This document shows, piece after piece, positions 11,066-27,580 of a stretch of DNA of 64,000 bases. Every line of letters begins with the position of its first letter. Within the stretch, counting starts at the first letter, position 1. The notes under the pieces were generated by a model. The model was not told where the DNA came from and searched no databases. It saw only the letters and a list, made by a program, of their open reading frames with translations. The DNA comes from Minisyncoccota bacterium (GTDB lineage: Bacteria > Patescibacteriota > Minisyncoccia > Phycocordibacterales > UBA9973): assembly GCA_041666225.1 (NCBI GenBank), contig JBAYHJ010000001.1:65881-129880 (forward strand), in the 5' to 3' direction. Both the position numbers and the translations under genes were made by a program.

Positions 11066-14000
11066 ATGAAAAAACAAAATTTAACAAAAATAATTGGAAT
11101 GGTTATTATGTTTATTTTTGTATTCTCTTTCGTGCAAATTATTTTACCTACAAACATCAACGCGGCAAGCCAGATAGACTGGGAAAACCCAAATAAATCA
11201 GGTAAAACCTACAATAAATATAAATTTAAAATCACAGACGTGGTCAATTCCGACGTAGCCATGCAGGTTATCGGATGTACTGGAGTAGTAAATAAAGTCT
11301 CTACTTGGATGCAAAAATTGGCCACAGACAAGTTGAAAGATATAGCATATGATAAATTGTTAAAACAGGCAAAGAAAGCCTGTCGGTCTGGAGAAAAGGT
11401 TGCTGTCAATTCGGCGGGGGCTATTATAAACGTTAATGATCTTACTTCCGGAGTGGATATGTTGTTTGATTGTGGTGAAATCATGCAAACAGAAGATGGA
11501 AAAACTCTACGATACTTTACTGAGGAAAAAAAAGCAACAGAAAAAAGAGATAATATGGAGCAATGCTTCAGTGGTATTGCTACAACTCTCGCAAAAAACC
11601 AATTAACCGCCATGACTCGTAGTGCCGTCAGTTGGGTAAATACTGGTTTTAGTGGAAACCCACTTTATGTTCAAAATATAACTTCGCTTACAAATAGCAT
11701 TGAAAGAAACGTTTTAGAGGAAGGAATGAATAAATTTAAAAACCCCAACAATGCATACCCATATGGAAGTGCTTTTTCTCGTTCTGTTATAAGTGGGTAT
11801 AGATCTGGAGGAATTTTTGGGAGTGGTAATAATGCACTTGATAATCTGACTTCTGATTTATCTGCATTTATTTCTGACCCAGTTTCATATAGTTCTGGAT
11901 CAGATGAGAGAACTGCTCTTCAGAGATCGAAAGACGCCAATATTGCATTTTCAAATGACTTCTCAACTGGGGGTTGGGATGGATGGCTTGCTTTTACCCA
12001 AAGAGATTCAAACAACCCTCTTGGATTTACAATGCAAGCAGCTCAAAATCTAGCTGATGATATAGCTCAACAAAAAAACAATACTGAAAATGAATTAATC
12101 CAAAATGATGGTTTTTTGTCTCAAAAAAAGTGTACCTTATGGCAAGTACATGATAGTACCACAGGAGTAATCGCTATGAAGTGGGACCCCGTTGAACATA
12201 AGATAAAAAACTTTACCAGTAAAACCAAAACTAATAGTTTTGATGAGTGTAAAGAATGGGAAACAATCACTCCAGGAAGTATTATAAAAGAACAAATGAG
12301 TGCTTACATAACTTCACCTGTTCGTCAGCTCGAACTTGCTGACACTATCAATGAATCTTTAAATGCAGTATTTTCAATATTGATGTCAAAACTTCAAAGC
12401 AATGGCCTAACAGGTCTTTCTTCTGAAGAATATGCATATACAGATGAAAATATGAATTGGACAGATAATTCGTCCAATGGAGGTCTTGGAGGGGCCAATT
12501 TATATGATAATAATGGAGCTTATAGTAGTGGTTTTGATCTTACTCGTGACCTTGGTAATACTTATATTTATGACGAGCCAACCAAAATTGGAACTTGGAA
12601 CGCAGATTCTGAAGTTAATTTAACTGATAAAAACCAAAGTCTGTATTCCGATCTTGCTCCAGTTGCTTATGATGAAATTACTAAACCTAAAACTTCAAAT
12701 ATTTATTACACAGTGAGTAATTCTGGAAAAACCAAACTCGTAACAAATGGTTACAATGGTTGGGCGATAGGAGATCGAGCTTTTTGGAATGGAAGCTCGT
12801 GGCAAAACTGGAAGAAAGACCAGACAAATCCGATAAAAAAGAGGGGGGTAATTCAAATTCAAAAGGATTATATAGTCGCAGCAAAAGAATCTTTACAATT
12901 TTTACCAAATGTTATGCCAAAACTTGGTGAACTTGACTACTGTATCCCCGGACCAAACCCAAGTTACAAAATAAACGTCGGACAAAATCAATCATTGTAT
13001 ACAGATTGGGTTGGAACTCTTTCTGGAGTCTACGATCAAAATGGTATATTTGAAAGAGACTCAACGCAATATCACATTGCTCAACCAGGAGACAAAGAAT
13101 ATGACGACTGGAAAAATATTTTTGATGATAATCCCAGTGTTTGGAGTTGGCTAGCAAAAGACGCAGGAACAGAAAAACATGCTCCGCACTTTTATTATTC
13201 CCATCCACTTATGTTAGGAAATGGAAAAGATAAGAATGATGAAAGTGAGGCTAAACACACAAATTGGATGGATAATTATATGTACATGGTCAACAATTAT
13301 ATGTTTACCAACTTCTATGAGGTGTTTGATAAGATGATGAATAAAACATATTTTGCAAATATAACTACAGAATATTTACAAAACGAAAAATATCCAGTAA
13401 ATATAGATCTAGATAAAAATCCATCATACATCCCCATGGCGGAGGAAGGTCTAGCTCTTACAAAAGATATTGTTTCATACGATGAAGATATAAACTCTGT
13501 TATGGATCAGTATAGAAGTGATATCGCTCAAGCTAACGCCAATATTGGAAAATTAGAAACTATTAAAAGACAAGTTAGCAATATCATAAAAGCAGCTCAA
13601 GATCGCCGTGATGCTAATCTGATTGAGCAAGTAAATAAGATAAATTCTTTAGCTATAGAAAATTGTAAGGCTGCACAAGTAGAATGTGATAATAGTACAG
13701 AAAACGTTAGTCTATGTTTGGAGGAATATAATATTTGCATAGAAAATTCAGTAAAAAGTGGTGGTATCTTGACTAATGAACAATATAAAGCAAAATATAA
13801 AGAATGTTTAGATGAAGAAGATATCCTTTATTATGATGATTCAGATATTATGAATGATCAAACAGGAGAAAGATGTAACAACAACCTTGATGATGACATG
13901 GATGGACTAATAGATATCAAAGATCCAGACTGTAGAGATTCTGTTATCGAAGCGCACTGCGAGACTAATTCTCTAAATTATGAAACTTCTAGAATTGTTC

Positions 14001-14188
14001 ATGGTTTTACTCCAGTTTCCTGTAAAGCACAAGATAGTGCGTTAAAAAATACTGGGGCAACAGAACAAGTTAGGGAATCGAGCTGTCTTTCCTATTCATA
14101 TTACACTGCCAATAATGGGAAAGATGAATCTACTGATCCATATATCATATATAATTGTAATTGGATACCAAAAAAAATAATTAATTAA
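11066..14188 (+). CDS. Giant secreted Cys-rich protein with C-terminal thrombospondin-type-3-like Ca-binding motif
   Basis: Signal-peptide/TM N-terminus (MVIMFIFVFSFVQIILPTNINA) and many Cys. CNNNLDDDMDGLIDIKDPDC near the C-terminus. Confidence 0.5.
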   Translation: MKKQNLTKIIGMVIMFIFVFSFVQIILPTNINAASQIDWENPNKSGKTYNKYKFKITDVVNSDVAMQVIGCTGVVNKVSTWMQKLATDKLKDIAYDKLLKQAKKACRSGEKVAVNSAGAIINVNDLTSGVDMLFDCGEIMQTEDGKTLRYFTEEKKATEKRDNMEQCFSGIATTLAKNQLTAMTRSAVSWVNTGFSGNPLYVQNITSLTNSIERNVLEEGMNKFKNPNNAYPYGSAFSRSVISGYRSGGIFGSGNNALDNLTSDLSAFISDPVSYSSGSDERTALQRSKDANIAFSNDFSTGGWDGWLAFTQRDSNNPLGFTMQAAQNLADDIAQQKNNTENELIQNDGFLSQKKCTLWQVHDSTTGVIAMKWDPVEHKIKNFTSKTKTNSFDECKEWETITPGSIIKEQMSAYITSPVRQLELADTINESLNAVFSILMSKLQSNGLTGLSSEEYAYTDENMNWTDNSSNGGLGGANLYDNNGAYSSGFDLTRDLGNTYIYDEPTKIGTWNADSEVNLTDKNQSLYSDLAPVAYDEITKPKTSNIYYTVSNSGKTKLVTNGYNGWAIGDRAFWNGSSWQNWKKDQTNPIKKRGVIQIQKDYIVAAKESLQFLPNVMPKLGELDYCIPGPNPSYKINVGQNQSLYTDWVGTLSGVYDQNGIFERDSTQYHIAQPGDKEYDDWKNIFDDNPSVWSWLAKDAGTEKHAPHFYYSHPLMLGNGKDKNDESEAKHTNWMDNYMYMVNNYMFTNFYEVFDKMMNKTYFANITTEYLQNEKYPVNIDLDKNPSYIPMAEEGLALTKDIVSYDEDINSVMDQYRSDIAQANANIGKLETIKRQVSNIIKAAQDRRDANLIEQVNKINSLAIENCKAAQVECDNSTENVSLCLEEYNICIENSVKSGGILTNEQYKAKYKECLDEEDILYYDDSDIMNDQTGERCNNNLDDDMDGLIDIKDPDCRDSVIEAHCETNSLNYETSRIVHGFTPVSCKAQDSALKNTGATEQVRESSCLSYSYYTANNGKDESTDPYIIYNCNWIPKKIIN

Positions 14189-14199
14189 TAAAAAATTGT

Positions 14200-16527
14200 A
14201 TGGAAAATCAACCAAGAAAAAGTAAAGCGTTCATAATTACAATCATAGCTATTGTATTGCTTTTGGTGGCTGGATATTTCCTATACAAGAGTGCAAAAAA
14301 TTCTTCCTCGACAAATATTATTTCAAGAATTTTCTCTCCATTAAGTTCTTCAAATAATTCGAAGGGCATCTCGGCTCAAGCAGGGGAAGACATAAAACAA
14401 GGTGACCAAGTATACACGGCAAGTACAAATACAAATGGTAACCCGATCGTTATGAAAGTTGTAGGAAGTGGAGCACTGAGTTCCGACAAAGTATTGGGAA
14501 TTGCCATTGGTAATATAAATAACGGAGAATTTGGAAGAGTTGAATTTAATACTCCGGGTTCAAATAGTTTCCTAGATTCTTTTTCAAATTTTATAAATGA
14601 TTTATTTACAGGCAACACTGGCAGTGGTGGTACTGGTACAGGAGGAAATGGTACTGGGGGTAATGGAACGGGTGGTGAATATTTACAAGTATGTAGTGAC
14701 ACTTTAGACAATGACTCTGATGGATTGATAGATACTCTCGATCCACAGTGCCACACCGATGGTGATGCTACAAATGCTAGTTCATATGCACCTACACATT
14801 ATTCTGAATTAAATTCACCTGGAGGTGGAGGTACTGGTGAATACACAGTACAGTGTAACGACAAAATAGACAATGATGCCGATGGATTGATTGACGCACT
14901 TGATCCACAGTGCCACGTTGATGGTGATTTAGCAAAAACATATATCCCAACTCATTATTTAGAAGCATCTTTACCAGGAGGTGATTATAAAATGCAGTGT
15001 AATGACACTTTAGACAATGATTCTGACGGATTGATAGATACTCTTGACCCACAGTGCCACACCGATGGTGATGCTACAAATGCTAGTTCATATGCACCTA
15101 CACATTATTCTGAATTAAATTCACCCACAGGTATATGTGCAAACGGAGCGACAAATTACCCAATTTGTACTATTGATATACCAGCGGGCCAACCCGACTT
15201 AACAGCAGGAAGGGTCACTCCTATTAGTGCCACGATCGATACTCCAACAACTCTTTCCTCTATCATTACAAATGAAGGAGATGGAGCAACTGGATATAAT
15301 TTCTCAGGCTTGTTCACAATTATAAAAAATTCTGACACAAATAGCACAACGACAAATGGTGCTGTTTCTAAGTCAATAATTAAAAATTTCATAGCTCGTA
15401 TTTTAAATAAAATATCTTGGATATCTAAAGCTATCGCATCAAATGAAATCGAGTACAGTGTCGTAGTTCCAGCTCTTTCGCCAAAAACAGGAAATGTGGC
15501 AACTGTCTCATATACTTTCAATTCCACGGGGACATACAATATCCGAGCCTGTGCAGATAAAAGATACTCAAGTGACACAGGAATAATTCCAGAATCAAAT
15601 GAGGACAATAATTGTGGACCGTGGGTCACCCTTACTGTCTCTGGATCATTGCCACCTCCTGGAGAAGAGTGTGCAAATGGAGCGACAAATTATCCTTTAT
15701 GTATCCTTGGCGATGATACACTTACACAGTGTAGTGATACCATAGATAATGATGGCGATAGTAAAATAGATGAATTAGACCCAAATTGTCATACAGATGG
15801 TGATTTGACAAAAGCATATCTAAGAGATCATGATTCTGAAGCCACTTCAACAATAACAGAAATAATTGAAGAAAATAAATGCCTACTGATAGAACAAAAT
15901 CCACTTATCTTTACTGATACAGAAAAAGCAAAATTGGCTGAGCTTCTACGTAAATTTTACTTAATATCATCCACCCTAAGGACAGAAGAAGACATCGTGG
16001 CAGTATATAGTGAGATAGACCAATATAAAAATTTTATCGCCCAAACAGACGATCTAATAGGTAGGTGTTATAAAGAAGTTGCTATTGTACAAAACAAGGG
16101 TGGTGGTGGAGGGTGGGTTAGAAATGGTAATCCTTGGTATCGAAAAGAAAAAGGGGGAACAGCCCCATATGGAGGAAATGGAATTTACACAGATTTTAAT
16201 ATTTTAGAGGGCAATGAGGGAAGAGTATATCAAGATGGAAAAGGTCCTGGGTGTAAGGCTGTGTCTGGTTATTTTTATGGTGGAAACCTTCTAAAAGATG
16301 CCATAATACATTATCCTCCAGCAGATGGTGGTGATGTAGTGGTTGGATATGCTGGGGCTAGTTGTGATTCAGTCAATACACAACCTTTCGATTGTTATCA
16401 AGTGAATAGTACTCTTTATGGGAATAACACTAATCTCCTTAAAAAAGAAGCACTGTTAGGTGCTGGGTGTAAGTGGAAAGAAGGAGTTTACCTTGATGGA
16501 GTAGAGAGAATTCTGGAGATTTGGTAG
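14200..16527 (+). CDS. Membrane-anchored surface protein with GTGGNG repeats and four thrombospondin-type-3-like (DxDxDGxxDxxDPxC) repeats
   Basis: N-terminal TM. Four C(S/N)DT(L/I)DNDxDGLIDxLDPQCH modules, two of them about 95% identical at the DNA level (14696-14826 vs 14998-15128). Confidence 0.5.
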   Translation: MENQPRKSKAFIITIIAIVLLLVAGYFLYKSAKNSSSTNIISRIFSPLSSSNNSKGISAQAGEDIKQGDQVYTASTNTNGNPIVMKVVGSGALSSDKVLGIAIGNINNGEFGRVEFNTPGSNSFLDSFSNFINDLFTGNTGSGGTGTGGNGTGGNGTGGEYLQVCSDTLDNDSDGLIDTLDPQCHTDGDATNASSYAPTHYSELNSPGGGGTGEYTVQCNDKIDNDADGLIDALDPQCHVDGDLAKTYIPTHYLEASLPGGDYKMQCNDTLDNDSDGLIDTLDPQCHTDGDATNASSYAPTHYSELNSPTGICANGATNYPICTIDIPAGQPDLTAGRVTPISATIDTPTTLSSIITNEGDGATGYNFSGLFTIIKNSDTNSTTTNGAVSKSIIKNFIARILNKISWISKAIASNEIEYSVVVPALSPKTGNVATVSYTFNSTGTYNIRACADKRYSSDTGIIPESNEDNNCGPWVTLTVSGSLPPPGEECANGATNYPLCILGDDTLTQCSDTIDNDGDSKIDELDPNCHTDGDLTKAYLRDHDSEATSTITEIIEENKCLLIEQNPLIFTDTEKAKLAELLRKFYLISSTLRTEEDIVAVYSEIDQYKNFIAQTDDLIGRCYKEVAIVQNKGGGGGWVRNGNPWYRKEKGGTAPYGGNGIYTDFNILEGNEGRVYQDGKGPGCKAVSGYFYGGNLLKDAIIHYPPADGGDVVVGYAGASCDSVNTQPFDCYQVNSTLYGNNTNLLKKEALLGAGCKWKEGVYLDGVERILEIW

Positions 16528-16529
16528 TT

Positions 16530-16625
16530 TGAATTAATTAAGAATTAATAATTAAGAATTAAGAAGGGGGAGTAGTAAGGAAAAAAGTAATTAAGAATTA
16601 AAAATTACGAATTAAGAATTGGGAA
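16530..16625. repeat. AT-rich dispersed intergenic repeat cluster (AATTAAGAATTAATAATTAAGAATTAAGAA ... TAATTAAGAATTAAAAATTACGAATTAAGAATTGGG)
   Basis: Built from the AATTAAGAATT / TAATAATTA(C/A)GAATT units that recur at 20571, 21036-21137, 32386, 61641, 62626 and 63301. Confidence 0.7.
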
Positions 16626-16654
16626 AGTACGAGAAAAGAGAAAAAATAAATAGG

Positions 16655-19570
16655 ATGAAAAGATTTTTACCATACATTTTAATATTGACGATTCTAGTGC
16701 AACTCCTTGCGCCTTTTAGTGTTGGCAGTGGAGTGAAAATTAATAAAGCCGAAGCAGCAGATTGTGTAATTAATGATGTTTTATTTAATCCTCTTACGGC
16801 ACTGCCAGACAAAAAACCAACCAGTGTAACTCTTCATATTTGGACGAGTGGTTGTGCTGGGCAAATAATTAGTGGACTAGGTCTTAATTTAAAAGATGAG
16901 GGGAAAAACTCTGTTTTATTGGTAGTTCCACGACAGGGGATAGTTTTAGATAAATTTTCTTTTCAATTAAAAACAGGGGAATACGGTTGTGGTACTGATA
17001 AAAAATGTGAAAATGTATCTGTTGATTTTACTATTATTGACAACAAGGGAGCAGTCTTGGCTACATATTCCTCAACTCAAGGTGGCTCAAAAAGAGACGA
17101 CGGAGCAGACATTATGTCTTATTTGTGTACAAAAAATGGAACAGAGTCTGATTGTAATAATACTGAGAAGTGGGAGTTTGTTTCTTCTGTTGGAACTGAT
17201 CAATCTGTTGGAGGTGCGACTACAACAGAAAAAGATGTTTGGTATTTTGAAAGTAAAAATGCAACAGGGGTTGTTGTTTTTACTTCAACAGAATATTCAT
17301 CTATTGAAACATGTACATTGGAAAGTGATGATAGGGCAAAAAATTTTAAAGATGAAAAAGTAGGTGATTGTGTATCAAAAAAAGTTGTTGTTGTTCGTGG
17401 TAATGAAGAAACACTTAATGATACAGATTCAAATCCATTGGACTGTGGAATAAGAAATTTTAAAGGCTGTGTGGCAATGGTTCCATATTATTTATTATTT
17501 GTACCAACTTCAGCGGTTTTCACAATAGCAGGGAAAATGCTTGATTTTACTTTGGGGTATTCTATTCAGGATAAATCATATCGTTCAACATTTGTTGTTG
17601 AAGGATGGGGAATTGTTCGAGACTTTTGTAATATGTTCTTTATTTTCATTTTGCTTTATATTGCTTTTGGAACTATTTTAAATCTTCACAGTGTTAAAAC
17701 AAAAGAAATGATTATAAATGTTGTAATCATTGGGCTTTTAATAAACTTTAGTTTATTTGCCACACAAGTAATTGTTGACGCTTCAAATATATTGACGCGG
17801 GTGTTTTATAATTCAGAGACAATCAAAATAGTTGAAAAGAATGCAGATGGAACAATCAAAGAACCTGTTCCTGGTAGTTATATAAAACTTTCTGAAGCTA
17901 TTGTCTCAAAAGTAAATCCCCAAGAACTAGTTTTGAGGGCTGGTACTGTTGGTTACATACAAGATAAAGGGGGTTTGTCTACACCCCCAGAAGCAGGAAA
18001 AATTGGTCTTGGTACGCTTATTTTAGTTATATTACTTGCAACAGCGGTAAACATTGTTGGAATAATAGTATTCGTATCTGTCTCTTTGATTTTCGTGACA
18101 AGAGTTATTGGGCTTTGGCTTGCTATGATATTTTCTCCTTTTGTATTTTTCAGCTACACCGTTCCATCATTGCAAGACATGGAAATGGTTGGTTGGAAAA
18201 AATGGTGGCCAGAAACTTTAAAACTTGCTTTTCTGGCTCCTGTTTTTATGTTTTTTATGTATCTAATTGTTAAGTTTTTGAATCTAAAACTTGATATTAT
18301 AAATACCACGGGGAAATCTGGGCCGGATTTCGTTGTTTCAATATTATTACCATTTGCTTTTATAATGATACTTCTCTGGAAAGCAAAAGATATTGCCAAA
18401 GACATGTCTGGTAAAATGGGCCAAACAATAACAAACGGAATTGCTGCTGCAGGAGGAATTGCACTGGGTGGAGCTGCATTGGGAACAGCAGTGTTGGGAA
18501 GAAGGGTAATTGGACAGACAATGGCAAAAGCATCAAGGGGAGATACTGCTACGCAGAAATACCAAGCTGCATTAGGAGATCCAGCAGCTATGGCTAAATT
18601 AACTAATTGGCAGAAACTAAAAGGAGGTGTTGGTTCAGCAGTAGGAATGGGTAAGGTCTATGGTACTGATAAGGGTAATATTGACCCACTAACAGGTAAA
18701 CCTATTGGGGTTGAGGGTGGTATTGGTGGGGCTCTAAATAAAAAACAGAAAGCTGTTGGGGATGTAGATAGTGCTCGACACAAAGAAGATGAATTAAAGA
18801 AAGCAAGTGGATTAGAAGGTGTTGATAACAGTAAACTATCTGGTAATGATATTAACACGATGGAAGGTAAGTTTAAAGAAACAGAACGATCTAATGCAGA
18901 AGCTGCCGCAAGAAAGGGAGTTGACGCTAAAGGAAAAGCAATATCAATAGAAGATGATAAAGGAATTTCATATCGAGGTGAAGAAGAATTCAAAAAAGCA
19001 AAGATGGAAAAGATGATACAAGACAGAAAAGACCTTGGAAATGATGATGATTTTGTAAAAGAAAAGGTAAGAGATAAAAAGGGTAATGTTATTAGAGAAG
19101 AAAGAACAGATCAATTAAAACCTGAAATATTAGACGGCATCAAGAATGAATTAAATATTAAATTAAGTGCTGCTGTTAAAATAGCTGCTGACAATAAACT
19201 TGTTGAGGACTTTGGTAAAATGAGAGAAAACGCCTCAAAACACGTCAACCCAATTAACAGAGTAATTGCTGGATCAAATAAATATAGTTATGACGCTAGA
19301 AAATTATCTGATATCAAATCAGATAAAAGAGAGGGGTTCTTTGCAAAAGTCCCAGTCGCTCTTATAGCGGGTATCGCAACAGGTGTTAGAGCTGGTATAA
19401 AAAATATTGGGCTAAGCAATGGAGGTGTAAAAGTTGAAGGTAATTTTATGAAAGATTTAGGAAATACAATTAGTGATTCATTAAAGAGTATGAAGGTTAA
19501 TGTAGACCTAAGCCATGTTGGAGAAACAAAAAGTAGTGCCGATGCACATGCAGGAGGAGCACATCATTAA
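16655..19570 (+). CDS. Large polytopic membrane protein, possible VirB6/TrbL-like T4SS channel component with long extracytoplasmic N-domain and G/K-rich C-tail
   Basis: Signal peptide MKRFLPYILILTILVQLLAPFSV, a ~290-aa Cys-containing domain, then six or more hydrophobic helices between aa ~290 and 620. The ATG at 16655 was chosen over the TTG at 16619. Confidence 0.35.
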   Translation: MKRFLPYILILTILVQLLAPFSVGSGVKINKAEAADCVINDVLFNPLTALPDKKPTSVTLHIWTSGCAGQIISGLGLNLKDEGKNSVLLVVPRQGIVLDKFSFQLKTGEYGCGTDKKCENVSVDFTIIDNKGAVLATYSSTQGGSKRDDGADIMSYLCTKNGTESDCNNTEKWEFVSSVGTDQSVGGATTTEKDVWYFESKNATGVVVFTSTEYSSIETCTLESDDRAKNFKDEKVGDCVSKKVVVVRGNEETLNDTDSNPLDCGIRNFKGCVAMVPYYLLFVPTSAVFTIAGKMLDFTLGYSIQDKSYRSTFVVEGWGIVRDFCNMFFIFILLYIAFGTILNLHSVKTKEMIINVVIIGLLINFSLFATQVIVDASNILTRVFYNSETIKIVEKNADGTIKEPVPGSYIKLSEAIVSKVNPQELVLRAGTVGYIQDKGGLSTPPEAGKIGLGTLILVILLATAVNIVGIIVFVSVSLIFVTRVIGLWLAMIFSPFVFFSYTVPSLQDMEMVGWKKWWPETLKLAFLAPVFMFFMYLIVKFLNLKLDIINTTGKSGPDFVVSILLPFAFIMILLWKAKDIAKDMSGKMGQTITNGIAAAGGIALGGAALGTAVLGRRVIGQTMAKASRGDTATQKYQAALGDPAAMAKLTNWQKLKGGVGSAVGMGKVYGTDKGNIDPLTGKPIGVEGGIGGALNKKQKAVGDVDSARHKEDELKKASGLEGVDNSKLSGNDINTMEGKFKETERSNAEAAARKGVDAKGKAISIEDDKGISYRGEEEFKKAKMEKMIQDRKDLGNDDDFVKEKVRDKKGNVIREERTDQLKPEILDGIKNELNIKLSAAVKIAADNKLVEDFGKMRENASKHVNPINRVIAGSNKYSYDARKLSDIKSDKREGFFAKVPVALIAGIATGVRAGIKNIGLSNGGVKVEGNFMKDLGNTISDSLKSMKVNVDLSHVGETKSSADAHAGGAHH

Positions 19571-20215: not shown

Positions 20216-20566
20216 ATGAAAGAAGATAATATAATTAAAGAAAAAAGTTATAATTTTAGTCTTAAAATTATAAAAACATACCAAGAATTAACAATAGATA
20301 AAAAAGAGTTTATTCTTTCAAAACAACTAATTCGTTCAGGAACATCTATCGGGGCTAACGTAGAAGAATCAATCGGTGCTCAATCAAAAAATGATTTTAT
20401 ATCAAAAATAAGTATTTCTTACAAAGAGGCAAGGGAAACACTTTATTGGTTACATCTTTTAACAGATAGTGGTTTTCTAAAAAAGGAACAATCTGATACA
20501 CTTATATTTGATTGTGAAGAATTATTAAAAATACTCGGTTCTATTTTAAGAACATCTAAGTCGTGA
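20216..20566 (+). CDS. Four-helix-bundle protein (23S rRNA intervening-sequence protein family)
   Basis: QLIRSGTSIGANVEE signature and the ETLYWL motif. Confidence 0.7.
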   Translation: MKEDNIIKEKSYNFSLKIIKTYQELTIDKKEFILSKQLIRSGTSIGANVEESIGAQSKNDFISKISISYKEARETLYWLHLLTDSGFLKKEQSDTLIFDCEELLKILGSILRTSKS

Positions 20567-20612: not shown

Positions 20613-21020
20613 GTGCAATTCAAAGTCCCACAATTTATCGACGTTGAAGACAAACTTTTTGGTCCTTTCACCTTTCGCCAATTCGCATACCTCGCAGGCG
20701 GAGCAGGAGCAATTTTTGTCTTATATAAATTACTTCCTTTATGGATTAGTATTTTTCTAATTATCCCAATGGCAGTTCTAACTGGTCTTTTGGTTTTTTA
20801 TAAAATAAACGAAAAACCTTTTATTTTTTACCTTCAAGCTGGATTTGAATATTTAACTTCAAGTAAGCTATATATTTGGAAACAGCGCTTGGCAAAACCT
20901 GGAAACAAAGAGACAGAAACAGAAACACCTCTTCCTATGGTATCAATAGTTCCAATGACAACAGAAAATAAATTAAAAGATTTGTCATGGAGTTTAGACG
21001 TTAAGGACAAAAACAAGTAG
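20613..21020 (+). CDS. PrgI-family (VirB3-like) T4SS membrane protein; GTG start
   Basis: N-terminal KVPQFIDVEDKLFGPFTFRQFAYLAGGAGAIFVLY matches the PrgI pattern (KVP...EK...T.RQ...G.GAA), and two TM helices follow. Confidence 0.55.
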   Translation: MQFKVPQFIDVEDKLFGPFTFRQFAYLAGGAGAIFVLYKLLPLWISIFLIIPMAVLTGLLVFYKINEKPFIFYLQAGFEYLTSSKLYIWKQRLAKPGNKETETETPLPMVSIVPMTTENKLKDLSWSLDVKDKNK

Positions 21021-21142: not shown

Positions 21143-21793
21143 ATGATTAGTGCAAAAAGTTCTCAAGAGTTTGTTCCAATTAAAGAAGTTCGAAACGGCA
21201 TCATTGTCCTTAAAGATGGTGGTCTTCGTGCAATTCTTCTTGCTTCTTCTTTAAATCTTTCTTTAAAATCGTCCGATGAACAAGCTGCTATTATAAATGA
21301 ATTTCAAAATTTTCTAAATGGATTGGATTTCCCCACACAAATATCTATGCAATCACGCCGACTAGATATCCGCCCATATCTTTTAACCTTAGAAGCAAGA
21401 ATAAAAGAACAAGTTGAGCCACTTTTAAAAATACAAACGAAAGAATACATAGACTTTATTCGGTCTTTCACTGATGAAGTAAACATCATGACAAAAACTT
21501 TTTTTATCGTCGTTCCTTATAGTCCCACAATCATAAAATCTAGTGACAGTATGATGAATAGTTTACTTGGAGGAAGTTCTGAAAAAAAACAAATTGAAAA
21601 TACAAAAAAAGCCATGGATTTGGCTTCATTTGAAGAAAAGAGAACTCAACTTGATCAAAGGGTTGGAGTCATCATTGGAGGCTTGGGTAGAATTGGGATC
21701 AGAACAGAACAACTTAAAACAGATCAGGTTGTTGAACTTTTTTATAAAACATTTAACCCAGGAGATATTAGTCAGGGAATTAAATTACAATAA
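21143..21793 (+). CDS. VirB4 N-terminal (CagE/TrbE/VirB-type) domain protein; same frame as the downstream ATPase ORF, separated by one TAA
   Basis: VPIKEVRNGIIVLKDGGLRAILLASSLNLSLKSSDEQAAIINEFQNFLNGLDFPTQISMQSRRLD resembles the VirB4 N-terminal family pattern (DG.l.av.e..G...l.sd.e.e.....f...l..l......Q....R). Stop TAA at 21791-21793, then F-I, then ATG 21800 in the same frame. Confidence 0.45.
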   Translation: MISAKSSQEFVPIKEVRNGIIVLKDGGLRAILLASSLNLSLKSSDEQAAIINEFQNFLNGLDFPTQISMQSRRLDIRPYLLTLEARIKEQVEPLLKIQTKEYIDFIRSFTDEVNIMTKTFFIVVPYSPTIIKSSDSMMNSLLGGSSEKKQIENTKKAMDLASFEEKRTQLDQRVGVIIGGLGRIGIRTEQLKTDQVVELFYKTFNPGDISQGIKLQ

Positions 21794-21799
21794 TTTATT

Positions 21800-23638
21800 A
21801 TGGGAATATTTTCATCTATATTTAAAAAGAAAGGGGACATAAACACTCAAAACAAAAGTGGTGTTATGCCAATGCTTCCAAGTGAAGTATATAAAGCAGC
21901 GACACTTGAGCTTCAAGACATTATCGCTCCATCTGCTCTCCAAATAACACCAAAATCGCTAAACTTGGGAGACAAAATAGCCAGAACTTTCTTTGTCATA
22001 TCATATCCAAGATACCTAAGTGACAACTGGTTTTCTCCAATTATAAACTTGGATAAAGTTTTTGATGTTTCTATTTTTATTCATCCTATTGAGACTGCTG
22101 AAATACTTAGATCCTTCCAGAAAAAAGTTGCTGAAGTTCAAAGTCAGATTTCTATTCGTGAATCAAAAGGTCTTGTTCGTGATCCAATGCTAGATACTGC
22201 ATATAAAGATCTTGAAGACCTTCGCGACAACCTAATGCAAGCTCAAGAAAAAATGTTTGATGTTGGGCTTTATATTACAATCTACGCTGAAAATGATAAT
22301 GATTTATTTAAAATTGAAAATGAAATAAAATCTCTTCTTGAATCAAAGCTCATTTATTTAAAACCTGCTCTTTTCCAACAAAATGAAGGTTTTAAGAGTG
22401 TTATTCCTCTTGGAACTGACATTTTAGGTATTCATCAAAAGCTCAATACTGAACCACTTTCAAGCATCTTTCCTTTCGTTTCGTTTGATCTAACTGAAGA
22501 CAAAGGAATACTTTATGGGGTTAACCGCCACAATTCAAGTTTAATTCTTTTTGATAGATTTTCTCTTCCAAACTACAATTCAATAACTTTTGCTACCGCT
22601 GGAGCAGGAAAATCTTACGCCACAAAGCTGGAAATTATTCGTACTCTTATGTTTGATACTGAAGTTATCGTCATAGACCCAGAAAGGGAATATGAATATT
22701 TAGCAGAAGCCGTCGGTGGTAGATACTTCAATATTGCTCTTTCGTCAGATCACCACATCAACCCTTTTGATTTACCAATACCGACAGGAGACGAAACAGG
22801 AGCCGATGTCTTGCGAGCAAATACCATAAATCTAGTAGGCTTGTTTCGTATTATGCTTGGAGGACTTACCCCAGAAGAAGATTCCATCATAGATACGGCA
22901 ATCACAGAAACATATGCGCTTAAAGATATTACTTCTGATTCAGATTTTCGAAACATCGAACCACCTATGTTGTCCGACTTCGAGGTTGTTCTCTCTGGGA
23001 TGGAGGGAAGTGAATCTTTGATGCAACGTTTGATTAAATACACCCATGGTTCTTGGGCATCTTTCCTCAATCAACCATCAAACGTCGATATCAATCGTAA
23101 GTTTATTGTTTTTTCCGTTCGAGACATGGAAGACGAATTGAAACCTGTTGCTATGTATATTGTCACTCACTATATTTGGAATGCTATTCGTAAAAATATT
23201 AAAAAGAGATTGTTGGTAGTAGACGAGGCTTGGTGGATGATGAAGTCAGAAGACACTGCTTCTTTCCTTTACTCTATTGCTAAGCGTGGAAGAAAATACT
23301 ATTTGGGGCTTGCAACCATTACTCAAGATGTAGGGGATTTTATGAAAAGCCCTTATGGTATTCCTATTGTTACAAACTCTTCTATTCAACTTCTTCTTAA
23401 ACAATCCCCGGCAACCATAGATGTACTCCAAAAAACTTTCAATCTGACAGATGAAGAAAAGTATCTACTCTTGGAGGCAAATGTGGGAGAGGGTATATTC
23501 TTTGCTGGATTGAAACACGTTGCCATCAAAACTATCGCATCTTACACCGAGGACCAGATCATTACTTCTGACCCTTCACAAATTCTTGCTATCAAAAAAG
23601 CCAAAAGTGATTTACTTGCGTCAAACAGTAGTAATTAA
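21800..23638 (+). CDS. virB4: VirB4/TrbE/TrsE-family T4SS ATPase (C-terminal part or full protein)
   Basis: Walker A in FATAGAGKSYATKLE, Walker B/DEAW in LLVVDEAWWMM, and a VirB4-like N-region (FFVISYPRYLSDNWF). Confidence 0.75.
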   Translation: MGIFSSIFKKKGDINTQNKSGVMPMLPSEVYKAATLELQDIIAPSALQITPKSLNLGDKIARTFFVISYPRYLSDNWFSPIINLDKVFDVSIFIHPIETAEILRSFQKKVAEVQSQISIRESKGLVRDPMLDTAYKDLEDLRDNLMQAQEKMFDVGLYITIYAENDNDLFKIENEIKSLLESKLIYLKPALFQQNEGFKSVIPLGTDILGIHQKLNTEPLSSIFPFVSFDLTEDKGILYGVNRHNSSLILFDRFSLPNYNSITFATAGAGKSYATKLEIIRTLMFDTEVIVIDPEREYEYLAEAVGGRYFNIALSSDHHINPFDLPIPTGDETGADVLRANTINLVGLFRIMLGGLTPEEDSIIDTAITETYALKDITSDSDFRNIEPPMLSDFEVVLSGMEGSESLMQRLIKYTHGSWASFLNQPSNVDINRKFIVFSVRDMEDELKPVAMYIVTHYIWNAIRKNIKKRLLVVDEAWWMMKSEDTASFLYSIAKRGRKYYLGLATITQDVGDFMKSPYGIPIVTNSSIQLLLKQSPATIDVLQKTFNLTDEEKYLLLEANVGEGIFFAGLKHVAIKTIASYTEDQIITSDPSQILAIKKAKSDLLASNSSN

Positions 23639-23706: not shown

Positions 23707-24711
23707 ATGTATAAAGTGAAAATTATAAAAATAAAATTTTTTCTAGTTTGGGTTTTTATTTTTGGAATAATTTGTATACCATCTTTTTCTTTTGCTGAAA
23801 TGCAAATAGAAGTGCAGAGTGATGAAGTTAATATAGAGATGAGTCCCAGAAACCCACAACCATATGACGATGTAACTATTACTCTTAGTAGTTACGCAAC
23901 TGATCTAAATAAGGCAATAATCGTTTGGAAAACTGGCTCAAGTACAGTTCTTTCGGGAATTGGTAAAACTAGTTATTCTTTTAAAGCGTCAGGGCCAAAT
24001 ACAACTAACTTTTTTGATATAAGTATTACTCCAGTTGGATCCATGAGTAATATAAATAAAAAAATTTCTATAACCCCCTCAGAAATTGAGATCATGTGGG
24101 AATCAGTAAATGGATACACACCTCCTTTTTATAGAGGAAAGTCACTTCCTTCAAGTGGTTCTTTTATCAAAGCTGTCGCAATCCCAAATACGAATACAAT
24201 AAAATCAGGGAGTGGTAGTATAACTTATAATTGGAAAAACAATGACAGTGCAGAAGTTGATTCTTCTGGATACAATAAAAATTCTTACATATTTAAAAAT
24301 AATATGTTTGATAATAAAAATGAAATAAGTGTAGTAGCTTCTTCTGTTGATGGAAAATATTCAGCTGAAAATTCAATACAAATACCTACATATAAACCAA
24401 AAATAATTTTTTACAAAAAGTCTCCAACTGAAGGCATTCTTTACAATAATGCACTCGACAAAGAAGCCTATATGTCTGAAGAAGAAATGACAATACTTGC
24501 TGAACCATACTTTTTGACTCTTCAAAACAATGAAAATGATTTAACTTACTCTTGGCAAATAAATGGAGAAAAAATAGTAACTCCTTCAAAGAAAAACGAA
24601 CTCACTGTCAGGCCAACTTCACGAGGTGGCTATGCTACTATTAATTTGATTATTGAAAATGTAAATGAATTATTCCAAGAAGTTAGTAATCAATTAAAAT
24701 TAAATTTATAA
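23707..24711 (+). CDS. Secreted hypothetical protein
   Basis: Signal peptide (FFLVWVFIFGIICIPSFSFA). The -10 TGTATAAT overlaps the annotated ATG, so the true start may be the downstream GTG at 23716. Confidence 0.45.
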   Translation: MYKVKIIKIKFFLVWVFIFGIICIPSFSFAEMQIEVQSDEVNIEMSPRNPQPYDDVTITLSSYATDLNKAIIVWKTGSSTVLSGIGKTSYSFKASGPNTTNFFDISITPVGSMSNINKKISITPSEIEIMWESVNGYTPPFYRGKSLPSSGSFIKAVAIPNTNTIKSGSGSITYNWKNNDSAEVDSSGYNKNSYIFKNNMFDNKNEISVVASSVDGKYSAENSIQIPTYKPKIIFYKKSPTEGILYNNALDKEAYMSEEEMTILAEPYFLTLQNNENDLTYSWQINGEKIVTPSKKNELTVRPTSRGGYATINLIIENVNELFQEVSNQLKLNL

Positions 24712-24712
24712 T

Positions 24713-26008
24713 ATGAAAAAAATATTTGTATCCATTTTTATAATAACTACAATTTTAACTCCATTGTTTTTTGTTAGTAAAATACAAAAAGTTGAAGCTG
24801 TAACCCCAAAAATTGATAGTATAAATAAGGTTACAGAAGTTAAACATGCAAATAATACTTGGGAATGGAATCTTAATATCCAAACAACTGATATCCCAGA
24901 CGGAACAGATGTTTGGGTTAATTTATATAAAGGAAGAACCCCTGGAGAAAATTTAATTAAAGCAATTGTAGCTCCTGATATAAAAGATAACATTTCAAGA
25001 TTTGGCACAGATTCTATTTTGGAAGATAATACTGATTACACGATTCAGGCTTCAGTATTATCACTGCCACGAACTTCTATTGTTTTCCGTGGAAAAACAA
25101 TAGAAGGGGATAAGGGTGATGTAGTTTATATAAACCCAGAAGAAAATAATGTTGATACTGGAATATACACCCTTCTTGCACCAATAGGAGATCTAAAAGT
25201 TGCTCCAGGTAATGTGGGTGATTATTTTAATATAATATTTAAAATAGCTATCGGCCTCTGTGGAGCTCTCGCTGTTATAATGATTGTTCTTGGTGGAATA
25301 CAATACATGGGTAATGAATCTATTTTTGGGCAAACAGAAGCAAAAAGTAAAATAACTGCCGCAATTCTTGGTCTATTGATTGCTCTTGGTGCTTATGCTC
25401 TTCTTAATACTATCAACCCAGACCTACTAGGTGGGGGAGGAGTACATATTGATCAGGTGAGTGCAGAAATACAAGAAGAACCAATATTATCAGATATAAA
25501 CACTCCAATTCCATCTGGATCATCAAACTCTTTCCCTTTTTGTAAGGGGGGTGTCAGAAAAACCGCAGTAAAAACAACTGCTGGGTATATGACATTTTGT
25601 TCAGCTTATTCATCTAAACTCCAAGAAATGATTTCTAGTGCATATCATGCTACTCCTAGTATTGCACTTGGAGGAGGAGCATTCAGGGATCCAGCAACAC
25701 AAATTGCCGCGAGAAGAAGAAATTGTGCCGATGTTTACAATACACCCTCAGAAAAATGTGTTCCCCCAACAGCAAAACCAGGAACATCTGCACATGAAAA
25801 TGGGCTTGCAGTTGATTTTACTTGTGATGGAACAACAATTAATTGGCAAACTAATACAAAAGCACCTGACTACCAACCTAAATATGCCCGTGTTCAAAAT
25901 ACAAAAAAATGTTTTGATTGGCTAACAGCTAATGCTAGTAAGTATGGGTTTAAAAATTATACAAGAGAAAACTGGCATTGGTCTACTGGGGATTTAGCTG
26001 GTCATTAA
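24713..26008 (+). CDS. Fusion protein: signal peptide + VirB2/TrbC-pilin-like double-TM segment + C-terminal VanY/M15 (LAS) peptidoglycan peptidase domain
   Basis: Double-TM FKIAIGLCGALAVIMIVLGGIQYMG...ITAAILGLLIALGAYALLNTINP. SAHENGLAVD matches SxHxxGxAxD exactly, and ENWHW gives the ExxH motif. Confidence 0.6.
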   Translation: MKKIFVSIFIITTILTPLFFVSKIQKVEAVTPKIDSINKVTEVKHANNTWEWNLNIQTTDIPDGTDVWVNLYKGRTPGENLIKAIVAPDIKDNISRFGTDSILEDNTDYTIQASVLSLPRTSIVFRGKTIEGDKGDVVYINPEENNVDTGIYTLLAPIGDLKVAPGNVGDYFNIIFKIAIGLCGALAVIMIVLGGIQYMGNESIFGQTEAKSKITAAILGLLIALGAYALLNTINPDLLGGGGVHIDQVSAEIQEEPILSDINTPIPSGSSNSFPFCKGGVRKTAVKTTAGYMTFCSAYSSKLQEMISSAYHATPSIALGGGAFRDPATQIAARRRNCADVYNTPSEKCVPPTAKPGTSAHENGLAVDFTCDGTTINWQTNTKAPDYQPKYARVQNTKKCFDWLTANASKYGFKNYTRENWHWSTGDLAGH

Positions 26009-26015
26009 TTAATTT

Positions 26016-27512
26016 ATGTCTAAAAAAATAATCATTTTTATAATAGCATTTATAACCACAGGAATAATAATTCTTGGGGTTTATTTCTGGATAAATAAAG
26101 ACAAAACCACAAATTTAGATGGAACTACTCCTTGGTATCAAGAGTTCAATCCTTTTGGAACTGGGAGTAATGCCACAAATAATACAGACAATAATAATGT
26201 GGGGGGAGACCAAAATGAAGTTCCAGATGGGGCAAATAATCAAACATCCAAATTCTATCAGATTACAGACTTTGCAATCGCTGGTGCTACCTTTTTAGAA
26301 GATACAAGACCAATTGTGGTTATACCGGGCCAAGAAGTTACCCAAAAGCCAGAACCAATTAAAACAATTATTAGTGCTGAAACAAAAGAAGGAAGAAAAG
26401 AAATCCAAATATTTTTGAATGAAACTCTTTCTTTAAAACCAGCCCTTGTGGTAGATGGAAATTTTGGCAAAAAAGTTACAAAGGCGATAAAAGATTTTCA
26501 AAAATTAAATAATTTACCAATCACAGGTATTGTTGATGCTGCAACTGCTCCATTTTTCATAAAAACAACTACAATTACGGACGTGGCAGAAAAAAACTTA
26601 TTTGAAACTGCTCCATCTGTCAGATATGTAGAGAGAATGAACGGACATATTTATAAAATGTTCCTAGATACAAAAATAAAAGAAAAAATTTCAAACTCAA
26701 CTATTCCTAGTATTTATGAAGCACTTTTTGATAAAACAGCAAAGACTGTGGTTTATAGATATTTATCAGAAGACAAAATAATAAGTAGTTTTATGGCAAC
26801 CTTAGGAGCAGTAAAGGGGGAGTTCCTTCCACAAAATATTTCTGGAATAACTACCTCGCCAGATAAAACTAAATTTTTCTATCTAACAGAAAACAGCAAT
26901 GGTGTCACGGGAACAGTGGGAGTTTTTGGGGGAGCAACGAGAGACAACGTATTTAGTTCTCCTTTTACAGAGTGGATACCACAATGGACAAAAAATCAAA
27001 ATATTTACCTAACAACAAAAGCTTCTTACAGTGTTTCTGGAAGTGTCTTTCTTTTAAACACAACAAACAAAACTATTTCAAAAATATTTGGTGGTGAACT
27101 GGGGCTCACTACATTAGTAAGTCCAAATGGGTCAAATGTTTTGTATAGTACATCCACAGAAACAGGCCCTAAGCTCGGTGTTTTTAATGCTACAAATCAC
27201 TCTACAAAAGATTTAAATACTTATGGACTACCTGAAAAATGTGTTTGGAGTAATGATGGTATTAGTGTTTACTGTGCTATTCCAAGTGTTATCACTGGCA
27301 ACCAATACCCTGATATTTGGTATCAAGGGCTAATTTCTTTTGATGATTATTTTGTAAAGATAGATACCAACAATGGTGAAAAAGTAACCATGGCAAATTC
27401 GGTCAATGAAAAACCATTAGATGGAACTTATCTATTTTTAGACAATAAAGAAGACAATCTTTTCTTTACAAACAAAAAAGATTCAACATTTTGGGGGTTG
27501 GACCTAAGATAA
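26016..27512 (+). CDS. Membrane-anchored protein with PG_binding_1 peptidoglycan-binding domain and beta-rich C-terminal domain
   Basis: N-terminal TM; VVDGNFGKKVTKAIKDFQKLNNLPITGIVDAATAPFF matches DGxFGxxTxxAVKxFQ...GL..DGIVG..T. Confidence 0.55.
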   Translation: MSKKIIIFIIAFITTGIIILGVYFWINKDKTTNLDGTTPWYQEFNPFGTGSNATNNTDNNNVGGDQNEVPDGANNQTSKFYQITDFAIAGATFLEDTRPIVVIPGQEVTQKPEPIKTIISAETKEGRKEIQIFLNETLSLKPALVVDGNFGKKVTKAIKDFQKLNNLPITGIVDAATAPFFIKTTTITDVAEKNLFETAPSVRYVERMNGHIYKMFLDTKIKEKISNSTIPSIYEALFDKTAKTVVYRYLSEDKIISSFMATLGAVKGEFLPQNISGITTSPDKTKFFYLTENSNGVTGTVGVFGGATRDNVFSSPFTEWIPQWTKNQNIYLTTKASYSVSGSVFLLNTTNKTISKIFGGELGLTTLVSPNGSNVLYSTSTETGPKLGVFNATNHSTKDLNTYGLPEKCVWSNDGISVYCAIPSVITGNQYPDIWYQGLISFDDYFVKIDTNNGEKVTMANSVNEKPLDGTYLFLDNKEDNLFFTNKKDSTFWGLDLR

Positions 27513-27545: not shown

Positions 27546-27580
27546 ACAAAAATGCACAAGCGAAGCTTGTGCATTTTTAA
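27546..27580. terminator. Bidirectional rho-independent terminator (aaaaaTGCACAAGCgaaGCTTGTGCAttttt) between convergent genes
   Basis: 9-bp stem, GAA loop, A-run and T-run; flanked by inverted AATTACCAATTAATAATTACC repeat variants. Confidence 0.7.

Follow-up and report, generated by a model that had tools for sequence, protein, structure and literature searches.

A VirB2-like hairpin carrying an exchangeable, predicted cell-wall enzyme in the type IV secretion operon of Paceibacteria

How do Paceibacteria get a secretion machine through the cell wall? Patescibacteria account for a large part of bacterial diversity, and the one genetically tractable member needs its type IV secretion system (T4SS) and pilins for growth on the host (PMC10633639). 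What this T4SS does, and how it passes the wall when no VirB1 can be recognised, have been named as open questions (PMC12102498). The gene described here lies at positions 24,713 to 26,008 (+ strand) of the DNA analysed, a stretch of 64,000 nucleotides ("the window") of contig JBAYHJ010000001.1 from an ultra-small bacterium of the candidate phyla radiation (CPR; Paceibacteria). A preliminary description, made from the sequence, had seen in its product a pilin-like segment fused to a peptidoglycan peptidase. The family to which this protein belongs is a candidate answer, namely that the wall enzyme of Paceibacteria is borne by the VirB2-like subunit itself.

The open reading frame (ORF) starts with ATG one nucleotide past the stop codon of the upstream gene and, according to the ORF listing of this AT-rich window (GC content ~30-36%), encodes 431 amino acids. 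Public databases hold an identical protein under the name 'MAG: D-alanyl-D-alanine carboxypeptidase family protein [Candidatus Paceibacterota bacterium]'. The whole gene can be read as a signal peptide, a β-sandwich, a VirB2-like hairpin, a linker and an M15B peptidase. A full-length structure model (mean predicted local distance difference test score, pLDDT, of 85.5) gives, in this order, a signal helix, a β-sandwich (residues 33-126), a disordered linker, a small β-hairpin at the invariant YxLLAPIG, two helices (residues 168-199 and 204-233), a low-confidence linker and the enzyme domain. In an alignment of 113 VanY-tailed relatives, helix 1 (76% mean identity to the query), helix 2 (80%) and the loop that joins them (74%) stand well above the enzyme domain (39%) and the N-terminal domain (8%). 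No other part of the protein is as well conserved as the hairpin, and the enzyme is a cassette that can be replaced. The term 'pilin-like anchor', under which the hairpin was first described, named a real structure but undersold a segment that is so much better conserved than the enzyme attached to it.

The VirB2/T4SS_pilin-like module spans residues 152-256 (25,166-25,480, + strand) and was delimited from the modelled hairpin, its homology at family level and its 76-80% identity among relatives. It is made up of a YTLLAPIG motif, helix 168-199, a loop, helix 204-233 and an NPDLLGGGG..QVSAEI junction, and the two hydrophobic stretches to which attention had first been drawn lie at residues 176-195 and 217-236. 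The layout of a pilin is present, in which a signal peptide precedes two hydrophobic helices linked by a short loop; the protein is nevertheless not the small, essentially hairpin-only polypeptide that VirB2/TrbC pilins are, since it has 431 residues and two extra domains. The VirB2/TrbC pilin character claimed in the preliminary description is borne out for the family and not for the single sequence, which stayed below the gathering scores of both Pfam models: T4SS_pilin (PF18895) gave 18.0 bits against 26.6 over residues 173-232, and TrbC (PF04956) gave 11.7 bits against 27.9. The NCBIfam Mbov_0395 pilin-like model (NF045849) was also below its cut-off, with 17.9 bits against 40 over residues 169-234. 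Used alone as a query, the 98-residue module retrieved 14,295 cluster representatives at E<=1e-3, and PF18895 was matched by 79 of the 106 closest new representatives at E<=1e-3 (best 3.1e-15). Relatives above the PF18895 threshold include P0137 (33.5 bits) and P0141 (31.5 bits), and the module aligned with P0223 at 112.6 bits (E~1e-27), a protein with nine PF18895 stretches (182 bits). These profile matches establish the homology of the hairpin to T4SS pilins, at the family level only. As for unusual relatives, P0223 (1,382 amino acids) consists of ~10 tandem T4SS_pilin modules in a single polypeptide, and P0153 (618 amino acids) has four pilin modules followed by an SLT-like tail.

Compared with the PF18895 pilins of Patescibacteria T4SSs, the protein shares the signal peptide, the two hydrophobic helices and the short loop, and both are encoded beside virB3/virB4. 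Those pilins are, however, ~100-185 amino acids long and occur in arrays with ~25% identity, whereas the gene studied here is single-copy, has a hairpin conserved at 76-80% and adds a ~120-residue N-terminal domain and a ~170-residue enzyme tail. An example of the arrayed kind is SEML1_0014-0019, the essential pilin array of Southlakia epibionticum (PMC10633639, PMC12102498). In the 64-kb window, no further pilin-like hairpin gene was detected with a hidden Markov model (HMM) of the family or with a broader one built from divergent PF18895 repeats. A VirB2-like hairpin near VirB4 (Mbov_0397 family) is also found in the Mbov_0395 family of Mycoplasma integrative and conjugative elements, likewise of the monoderm or wall-less MPF_FATA type; the Mbov_0395 protein is, in contrast, only ~80 amino acids long, has no enzyme domain and belongs to wall-less hosts, and the present protein is not a member of that family.

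The signal peptide together with the two helices suggests an N-out, C-out topology, in which both extra domains would lie outside the membrane. This topology rests on the signal peptide and the even number of helices and not on the positive-inside rule, because the hairpin loop is not net positive. Six conserved cysteines in the C-terminal domain, and the location of its presumed substrate, fit a position outside the membrane.

The M15/VanY peptidase domain proposed in the preliminary description is borne out. The M15B (VanY/LdcB-type) LAS zinc peptidase domain, called from Pfam, profile and model, comprises residues 275-431 (25,535-26,005, + strand), and the Pfam VanY model (PF02557) matched residues 300-423 with 33.1 bits, above the gathering score of 25 (E=5.4e-8). 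Both motifs quoted at the outset are present: SAHENGLAVD (SxHxxGxAxD; residues 359-368; 25,787-25,816, + strand) contains the predicted zinc ligands H361 and D368, and ENWH (ExxH; residues 419-422; 25,967-25,978, + strand) contains the predicted catalytic E419 and the predicted zinc ligand H422. A further residue, R325 (25,685-25,687, + strand), aligns with the conserved Arg of VanY/LdcB ('sgYRt' of VanYB) and, by analogy with LdcB/VanY structures, presumably binds the substrate carboxylate. R325, S359, H361, G364, A366, D368, E419, W421 and H422 are invariant in 113/113 relatives, and so are the six cysteines (277, 296, 338, 349, 371 and 400).

A search of PDB sequences with the single protein sequence returned no match. 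With the family profile, the best solved chains were VanYB (6A6A, 5HNM; E=1.5e-13) and YodJ/LdcB (4OX3; 7e-13), and Bacillus anthracis LdcB, pneumococcal LdcB/DacB, Ply500 and VanXY were matched as well; PGtSmHesGlAvD of the profile aligns to PGTSEHQLGLAVD of VanYB, and EpWHW to EPWHY of the same enzyme. Foldseek of the full-length model against the PDB gave Ig-like matches to the N-terminal domain only and none for the C-terminal domain. When the latter was modelled alone (pLDDT 89.8; predicted template modelling score 0.84), a LAS fold was obtained, and the top 28 Foldseek PDB matches were all LAS/M15 proteins (VanYB, LdcB, VanXY, Ply500, DacB and VanX), with a best E of 1.9e-6 and template modelling scores up to 0.57. 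Next in rank were Hedgehog N-domains, which are classic remote relatives of the LAS enzymes. In the model, D368 and H422 lie on strands 366-371 and 419-424, respectively. Membership in M15B is well supported by these sequence and model comparisons, and the predicted peptidase may be a D,D-carboxypeptidase, an L,D-carboxypeptidase or an endopeptidase.

The modelled fold is the one shared by the VanY/LdcB enzymes (M15B, PF02557; VanYB 5HNM, 5ZHF and 6A6A; B. anthracis LdcB 4MPH; B. subtilis YodJ/LdcB 4OX3), with which the domain also has SxHxxGxAxD, ExxH and the conserved Arg in common, along with an HMM match above threshold. VanY/LdcB enzymes are extracytoplasmic and act on peptidoglycan stem peptides, and the same is predicted here. 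Identity to the solved enzymes is, on the other hand, only 18-23%, and the six invariant cysteines are a feature of the present family. The enzyme also sits C-terminal to a pilin-like hairpin in a T4SS operon, whereas VanY/LdcB enzymes use a single N-terminal anchor and are encoded in a van cluster or a wall-maturation context.

At the other end of the protein, a Sec signal peptide is predicted from sequence and model at residues 1-29 (24,713-24,799, + strand; MKK, a hydrophobic core and VEA), and the signal-like sequence MKKIFVSIFIITTILTPLFFVSKIQKVEA can be read directly, as had been noted. The region forms a helix (residues 2-20) in the model, the N-termini of relatives are similar, and a cleavage site would close the peptide. 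The preliminary description had assigned the N-terminal ~230 residues to a signal peptide and the hairpin; both are there, but a ~95-residue β-sandwich had been overlooked. This variable Ig/FnIII-like domain (residues 33-126; 24,809-25,090, + strand) is all-β in the model, with a pLDDT of ~90, and the PDB structures that Foldseek ranks closest to it are TapA, FnIII and Ig-like domains. It is missing or replaced in many relatives and behaves as a mosaic: relative P0002 is 81% identical from residue 152 on and unrelated before.

The same hairpin in the same genomic slot was found to carry other tails, among them YkuD (P0071) and NlpC/P60 (P0067). Among the closest representatives, YkuD and NlpC/P60 tails were counted 12 times each, followed by SLT (10), VanY (8), Amidase_2 (5), SLT_2 and M15_4 (3 each), M15 and M23 (2 each), and Amidase_5 and CHAP (1 each). 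The tails vary little in length (median 172 amino acids, 5th-95th percentile 158-227), and the common denominator of the recognised ones is cleavage or remodelling of peptidoglycan. Nearly all classes of peptidoglycan hydrolase are represented among them. The switch from one cassette to another takes place at the QVSAEI junction motif (25,454-25,471, + strand), which is common to the VanY, YkuD and NlpC/P60 versions; residues 244-249 near it are predicted to be disordered (pLDDT <50). P0066 (YkuD) and P0067 (NlpC/P60), for example, are 99% identical to residue 255 and unrelated beyond, with the breakpoint right after QVSAEI. At the DNA level, the loci of these two proteins (L003 and L089) share 98.8% identity as far as codon 256, lose similarity for ~540 nucleotides only and are 97% identical again straight after the stop codon. 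Seven such swapped-tail pairs were identified among ~300 proteins, and the replacement of tails is recent and clean. Bare hairpins also occur in this slot (P0140, 131 amino acids, in L007; P0159) and end just past the junction; stand-alone hairpins make up only ~2-5% of the relatives.

Four tail classes are unassigned (the P0124, P0130, P0131 and P0151 groups; loci such as L027, L029, L037 and L028). In the class termed unkA, the invariant residues H..H-x7-D..E..H-x-H hint at a LAS-like site, and the unkB and unkE tails have SLT-like 'ES..G...GLFQ' motifs, again a hint only. One unassigned class, with invariant H/D/E/H residues and a LAS-like look, changes places with VanY tails between proteins that are otherwise 98% identical (P0010 versus P0124). 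The four classes are probably unrecognised wall-active domains, and it is the swapping that marks them as such.

A conserved front and junction followed by unrelated C-terminal domains is also the build of polymorphic toxins (CdiA-CT, Rhs, MafB). The cassettes of those toxins are, however, nucleases or pore formers, whereas here they are wall enzymes, and delivery would be by Sec in a T4SS context instead of by type 5, 6 or 7 secretion. A toxin-immunity arrangement was considered and rejected, as no gene co-swaps with the tail: identity resumes after the stop codon, and the next gene is a conserved homologue of the 498-residue protein encoded downstream in the window.

The location of the gene in a T4SS operon, also claimed in the preliminary description, stands, with genes for a PrgI/VirB3-like protein, a split VirB4 (CD1110 family, 369 bits) and a VirB6-like protein. 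The gene is the second after virB4, with tight spacing, and PrgI and VirB4 are encoded 1-4 kb upstream. A first protein search returned 575 homologues, nearly all of them VanY proteins with or without a T4SS_pilin annotation, and all whose source name gives a taxon carry a Patescibacteria label. A scan of one genome per GTDB species yielded at least 306 confirmed loci; gene order was counted in the best 80 of them, using those with enough flanking sequence. The titles of these 80 are nearly all Patescibacteria, and the other seven say 'bacterium' or 'uncultured bacterium'. VirB4 lay within 2.5 kb upstream of the homologue in 59/60 loci, a homologue of the 334-residue protein of the window was directly upstream in 58/60, the 498-residue homologue was the next gene in 70/74, and DnaA was within 6.5 kb in 50/53. 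The order VirB6-like, PrgI, split VirB4, 334-residue protein, hairpin-enzyme protein and 498-residue protein is kept in ~60 species-level Patescibacteria genomes. The hairpin-enzyme architecture is the rule in Paceibacteria and not a one-off; it had been called unusual, which is correct in relation to textbook T4SSs and incorrect for Paceibacteria, where this is the standard gene of its slot. Two genomes, L055 (7,827-9,008 and 10,417-11,481) and L081 (5,081-6,436 and 7,833-8,870), have a second hairpin-enzyme gene after the 498-residue homologue; these second copies have another tail class and almost no N-terminal domain.

The operon is a chromosomal, oriC-proximal, monoderm-type (MPF_FATA-like) T4SS of Patescibacteria, a system described by Quinonero-Coronel et al. 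2025 (PMC12102498). The counterpart T4SS of Saccharibacteria is essential for epibiotic growth (PMC10633639, PMC12857230). Most Patescibacteria with VirB2 homologues have no recognisable VirB1, and it has been proposed that other hydrolases may fill its role; VirB1 matches associated with VirB4 were found mainly in Paceibacteria (PMC12102498). Plausibly, those matches are the SLT- and NlpC/P60-tailed members of the family described here. The text supplements of that study make no mention of VanY, M15, YkuD or NlpC (PMC12102498).

On balance we lean, by a modest degree, towards the view that the protein is the dedicated cell-wall-remodelling subunit of this T4SS, one that would do the job of VirB1 or PrgK and is built on a VirB2-like hairpin. 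Sec would export the protein, and the hairpin would then enter the membrane and dock in, or be handled by, the VirB3/VirB4/VirB6 machinery, so placing both the variable Ig-like N-terminal domain and the C-terminal enzyme outside the membrane. There, the zinc-dependent M15B peptidase would trim or cleave peptidoglycan stem peptides beside the machine, and a passage through the wall would be opened or maintained, as it is by VirB1, PrgK, TraG and CwlT elsewhere. The enzyme itself would be an exchangeable cassette on a fixed hairpin scaffold. The ORF, the domains, motifs and fold, the homology of the family, the conserved gene order and the replacement of cassettes are observed; the membrane topology, the enzymatic activity with its bond specificity, a physical tie to the T4SS and which wall is cut are inferences. 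The combination of a conserved hairpin and a swapped enzyme suggests how Paceibacteria may get a secretion machine through the cell wall.

The closest functional parallels would be the VirB1-like hydrolases of monoderms, PrgK (pCF10), TraG (pIP501), CwlT (ICEBs1) and TcpG (pCW3), which are membrane-anchored, extracytoplasmic wall hydrolases whose genes follow closely after virB4 in MPF_FATA-type operons. The domains of the PrgK/TraG/CwlT type (SLT, NlpC/P60, CHAP and M23) are present in relatives that occupy the same slot. The protein of the window differs in having a single catalytic domain where PrgK/TraG/CwlT-type hydrolases have two or three, and this domain is VanY, not the SLT/muramidase or CHAP/NlpC-P60 that characterises VirB1-like hydrolases. 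To our knowledge, a VanY-type M15B peptidase has not been reported for T4SS hydrolases. The anchor is the conserved VirB2-like hairpin, in contrast to the simple N-terminal helix of the monoderm hydrolases, and the catalytic domain is swapped as a cassette between close strains, unlike in PrgK, TraG, CwlT and TcpG.

Several points weigh against a dedicated wall-remodelling subunit. A conserved hairpin combined with a hypervariable N-terminal domain and tail swapping is more than housekeeping of the cell's own wall requires and could instead indicate a host-directed function. The Pfam pilin score of the sequence itself is below threshold. Activity, specificity and topology are predictions throughout. 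Four tail classes, accounting for about a quarter of the loci, gave no significant Pfam or PDB-profile match, and the hydrolase is not indispensable to the module, because P0140 in L007 is a hairpin without an enzyme tail. Finally, the VanY/LdcB enzymes known so far act as carboxypeptidases, shortening stem peptides and leaving cross-links intact, so that a tail of the VanY type might by itself be unable to make a hole.

The first of these points leads to the alternative that survives best, although we regard it as doubtful: the protein could be a true pilin, with a hairpin that polymerises into a pilus or filament, which would display the Ig-like domain and the hydrolase on its surface or tip and serve to attach to the wall of a host cell and breach it. 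The hairpin does fall within the T4SS_pilin superfamily and belongs to the only VirB2-like gene of the cluster, the N-terminal domain is hypervariable and mosaic, and the class of the tail is swapped between near-identical strains, as would be expected if the target wall varied with the host. In solved VirB2-type pili, both termini face outward, and both extra domains could for that reason be displayed on a pilus. T4SS and pilins are essential for the epibiotic growth of Southlakia (PMC10633639), and parasitic Paceibacteria highly express T4SS pilins and peptidoglycan-binding proteins (PMC10936435). The conservation of the hairpin, however, at 76-80% identity, is far higher than is usual for exposed pilins, the arrayed Patescibacteria pilins averaging 25% (PMC12102498), and some cultured Paceibacteria parasitise methanogenic archaea (PMC10936435), which speaks against attack on a host wall. 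Two globular domains per subunit would also crowd a VirB2-type lattice. Methanogenic archaeal hosts have no murein.

Taken to its full extent, this alternative would have Paceibacteria assemble a pilus or channel from a single, highly conserved VirB2-like subunit, each copy with a hypervariable adhesin-like head and a swappable peptidoglycan-degrading enzyme, and drill through the wall of the host with it, a picture we put forward tentatively and consider unlikely. Recombination would, under such an enzyme-armed filament, swap the cassette to match the wall chemistry of the host. If true, it would explain the missing VirB1 of most Patescibacteria and the presence of pilins in a monoderm T4SS, and, in part, the dependence of the epibiotic lifestyle on this T4SS.

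The junction admits a second alternative, which we hold to be improbable. NPDLLGxGG..QVSAEI could be a processing site of a pro-pilin, from which the enzyme would be cut away to act as a free hydrolase, with a small mature pilin left behind. This junction stays the same before every kind of tail and is predicted to be disordered, the stand-alone hairpins P0140 and P0159 end just past it, and C-terminal processing is a known feature of VirB2/TrbC pilins such as RP4 TrbC and the T-pilin. Pfam and NCBIfam scans of the operon nevertheless yielded no protease candidate, and the conservation of the junction is explained equally well by its being the recombination boundary of cassette exchange.

Less credible still is a housekeeping LdcB/VanY-like carboxypeptidase that has a generic double-helix anchor and lies beside the T4SS by chance. 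The public annotation as a D-Ala-D-Ala carboxypeptidase, a class A penicillin-binding protein gene near the gene, and the frequency of LdcB-type enzymes in wall maturation would agree with it. The anchor is, however, a homologue of T4SS pilins that surpasses the rest of the protein in conservation, virB4 is linked in 59/60 loci, and lytic transglycosylases, amidases, NlpC/P60 or M23 domains would not so freely take the place of an enzyme with such a duty. A role as a VanY-type accessory carboxypeptidase in vancomycin resistance can be dismissed almost entirely, since, even though the best solved-structure matches include VanYB and VanXY, this T4SS operon is conserved across hundreds of environmental CPR genomes and no vanH/vanA/vanX-like or vanRS-like gene was found among the neighbours scanned with Pfam.

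Part of this was known: the parent T4SS and its pilins have been described, and the protein is common and automatically annotated. In the literature searched, we found no account of wall hydrolases fused to a VirB2-like hairpin, of a T4SS hydrolase of the VanY type or of enzyme cassettes being exchanged in this way, an absence that is not proof. The fusion may be noted elsewhere, for example on InterPro architecture pages; no paper was found that joins Patescibacteria, VirB2 and carboxypeptidase. The finding is an informative variant and does not amount to a system of a new kind. The exchange of tails between near-identical strains is a natural experiment, in which a component of the T4SS is connected with wall chemistry.

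At the head of the operon, two large, N-terminally anchored surface proteins with acidic double-disulfide repeats are encoded (11,066-14,188 and 14,200-16,527, + strand). The repeat units were matched by NCBIfam with 82 and 27 bits, and the protein at 14,200-16,527 is also a borderline CARDB match. The next gene (16,619-19,570, + strand) encodes a polytopic membrane protein of 983 amino acids with at least seven hydrophobic segments, which is probably VirB6-like; no direct family match was obtained for the protein of the window in Pfam/NCBIfam scans, and the protein encoded at the corresponding position in a relative matches TrbL_3 weakly. Just upstream of prgI lies a 23S_rRNA_IVP-family gene (PF05635, 94 bits; 20,216-20,566, + strand), which is conserved in several genomes, among them L001 (3,121-3,471) and L003 (3,507-3,857), and absent from L004. 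The PrgI family protein (VirB3-like; 20,613-21,020, + strand) was recognised by Pfam PrgI (E=1e-9, 39.3 bits versus 27).

VirB4 is encoded in two parts. A TrsD/TraD-like protein of 216 amino acids (21,143-21,793, + strand), matched by NCBIfam TrsD below the cut-off, appears to be the separately encoded N-terminal part; it also matches positions 102-233 of the VirB4_plasma model, below the cut-off, and its relatives match PF26593 (TraC-like). The VirB4-like T4SS ATPase of 612 amino acids follows (21,800-23,638, + strand; P-loop_TraG E=1.9e-24; conju_CD1110 369.3 bits versus 325). The two-ORF split is kept in every relative examined, and in L001 (4,056-6,827) a gene for an 84-residue GIY-YIG protein lies between the two halves.

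The gene directly upstream of the hairpin-enzyme gene (23,707-24,711, + strand) encodes the 334-residue protein, which has an N-terminal hydrophobic segment, suggesting export or anchoring, and gave no Pfam, NCBIfam or PDB match. Downstream, the anchored 498-residue protein (26,016-27,512, + strand) contains PG_binding_1 (Pfam E=3.2e-12), and no informative PDB or NCBIfam match was obtained beyond this peptidoglycan-binding domain. PG_binding_1 is present in about a quarter of the 498-residue homologues (L009-L088), as an optional insert that shows no correlation with the tail class. The highly expressed proteins with peptidoglycan-binding domains of archaea-parasitising Paceibacteria (PMC10936435) might be this protein. 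The operon ends at a hairpin with a 15-bp stem (27,547-27,579), found by a terminator scan and likely a terminator between the convergent operon end and jag. Beyond it lie the convergent jag-yidC-rnpA genes, then dnaA and dnaN.

Elsewhere in the window, a few genes upstream of this T4SS without a recognised coupling protein, an ORF of 998 amino acids (3,132-6,128) has an FtsK_gamma domain at residues 103-160 and two hydrophobic segments, with no FtsK/SpoIIIE motor domain detected in it, an odd arrangement. On the far side, a T2SSE/PilB-type ATPase (382 bits) is encoded at 39,329-41,029 (- strand), and a surface protein of 1,203 amino acids with a borderline DUF11 match and a C-terminal hydrophobic anchor is encoded at 42,378-45,989 (+ strand).

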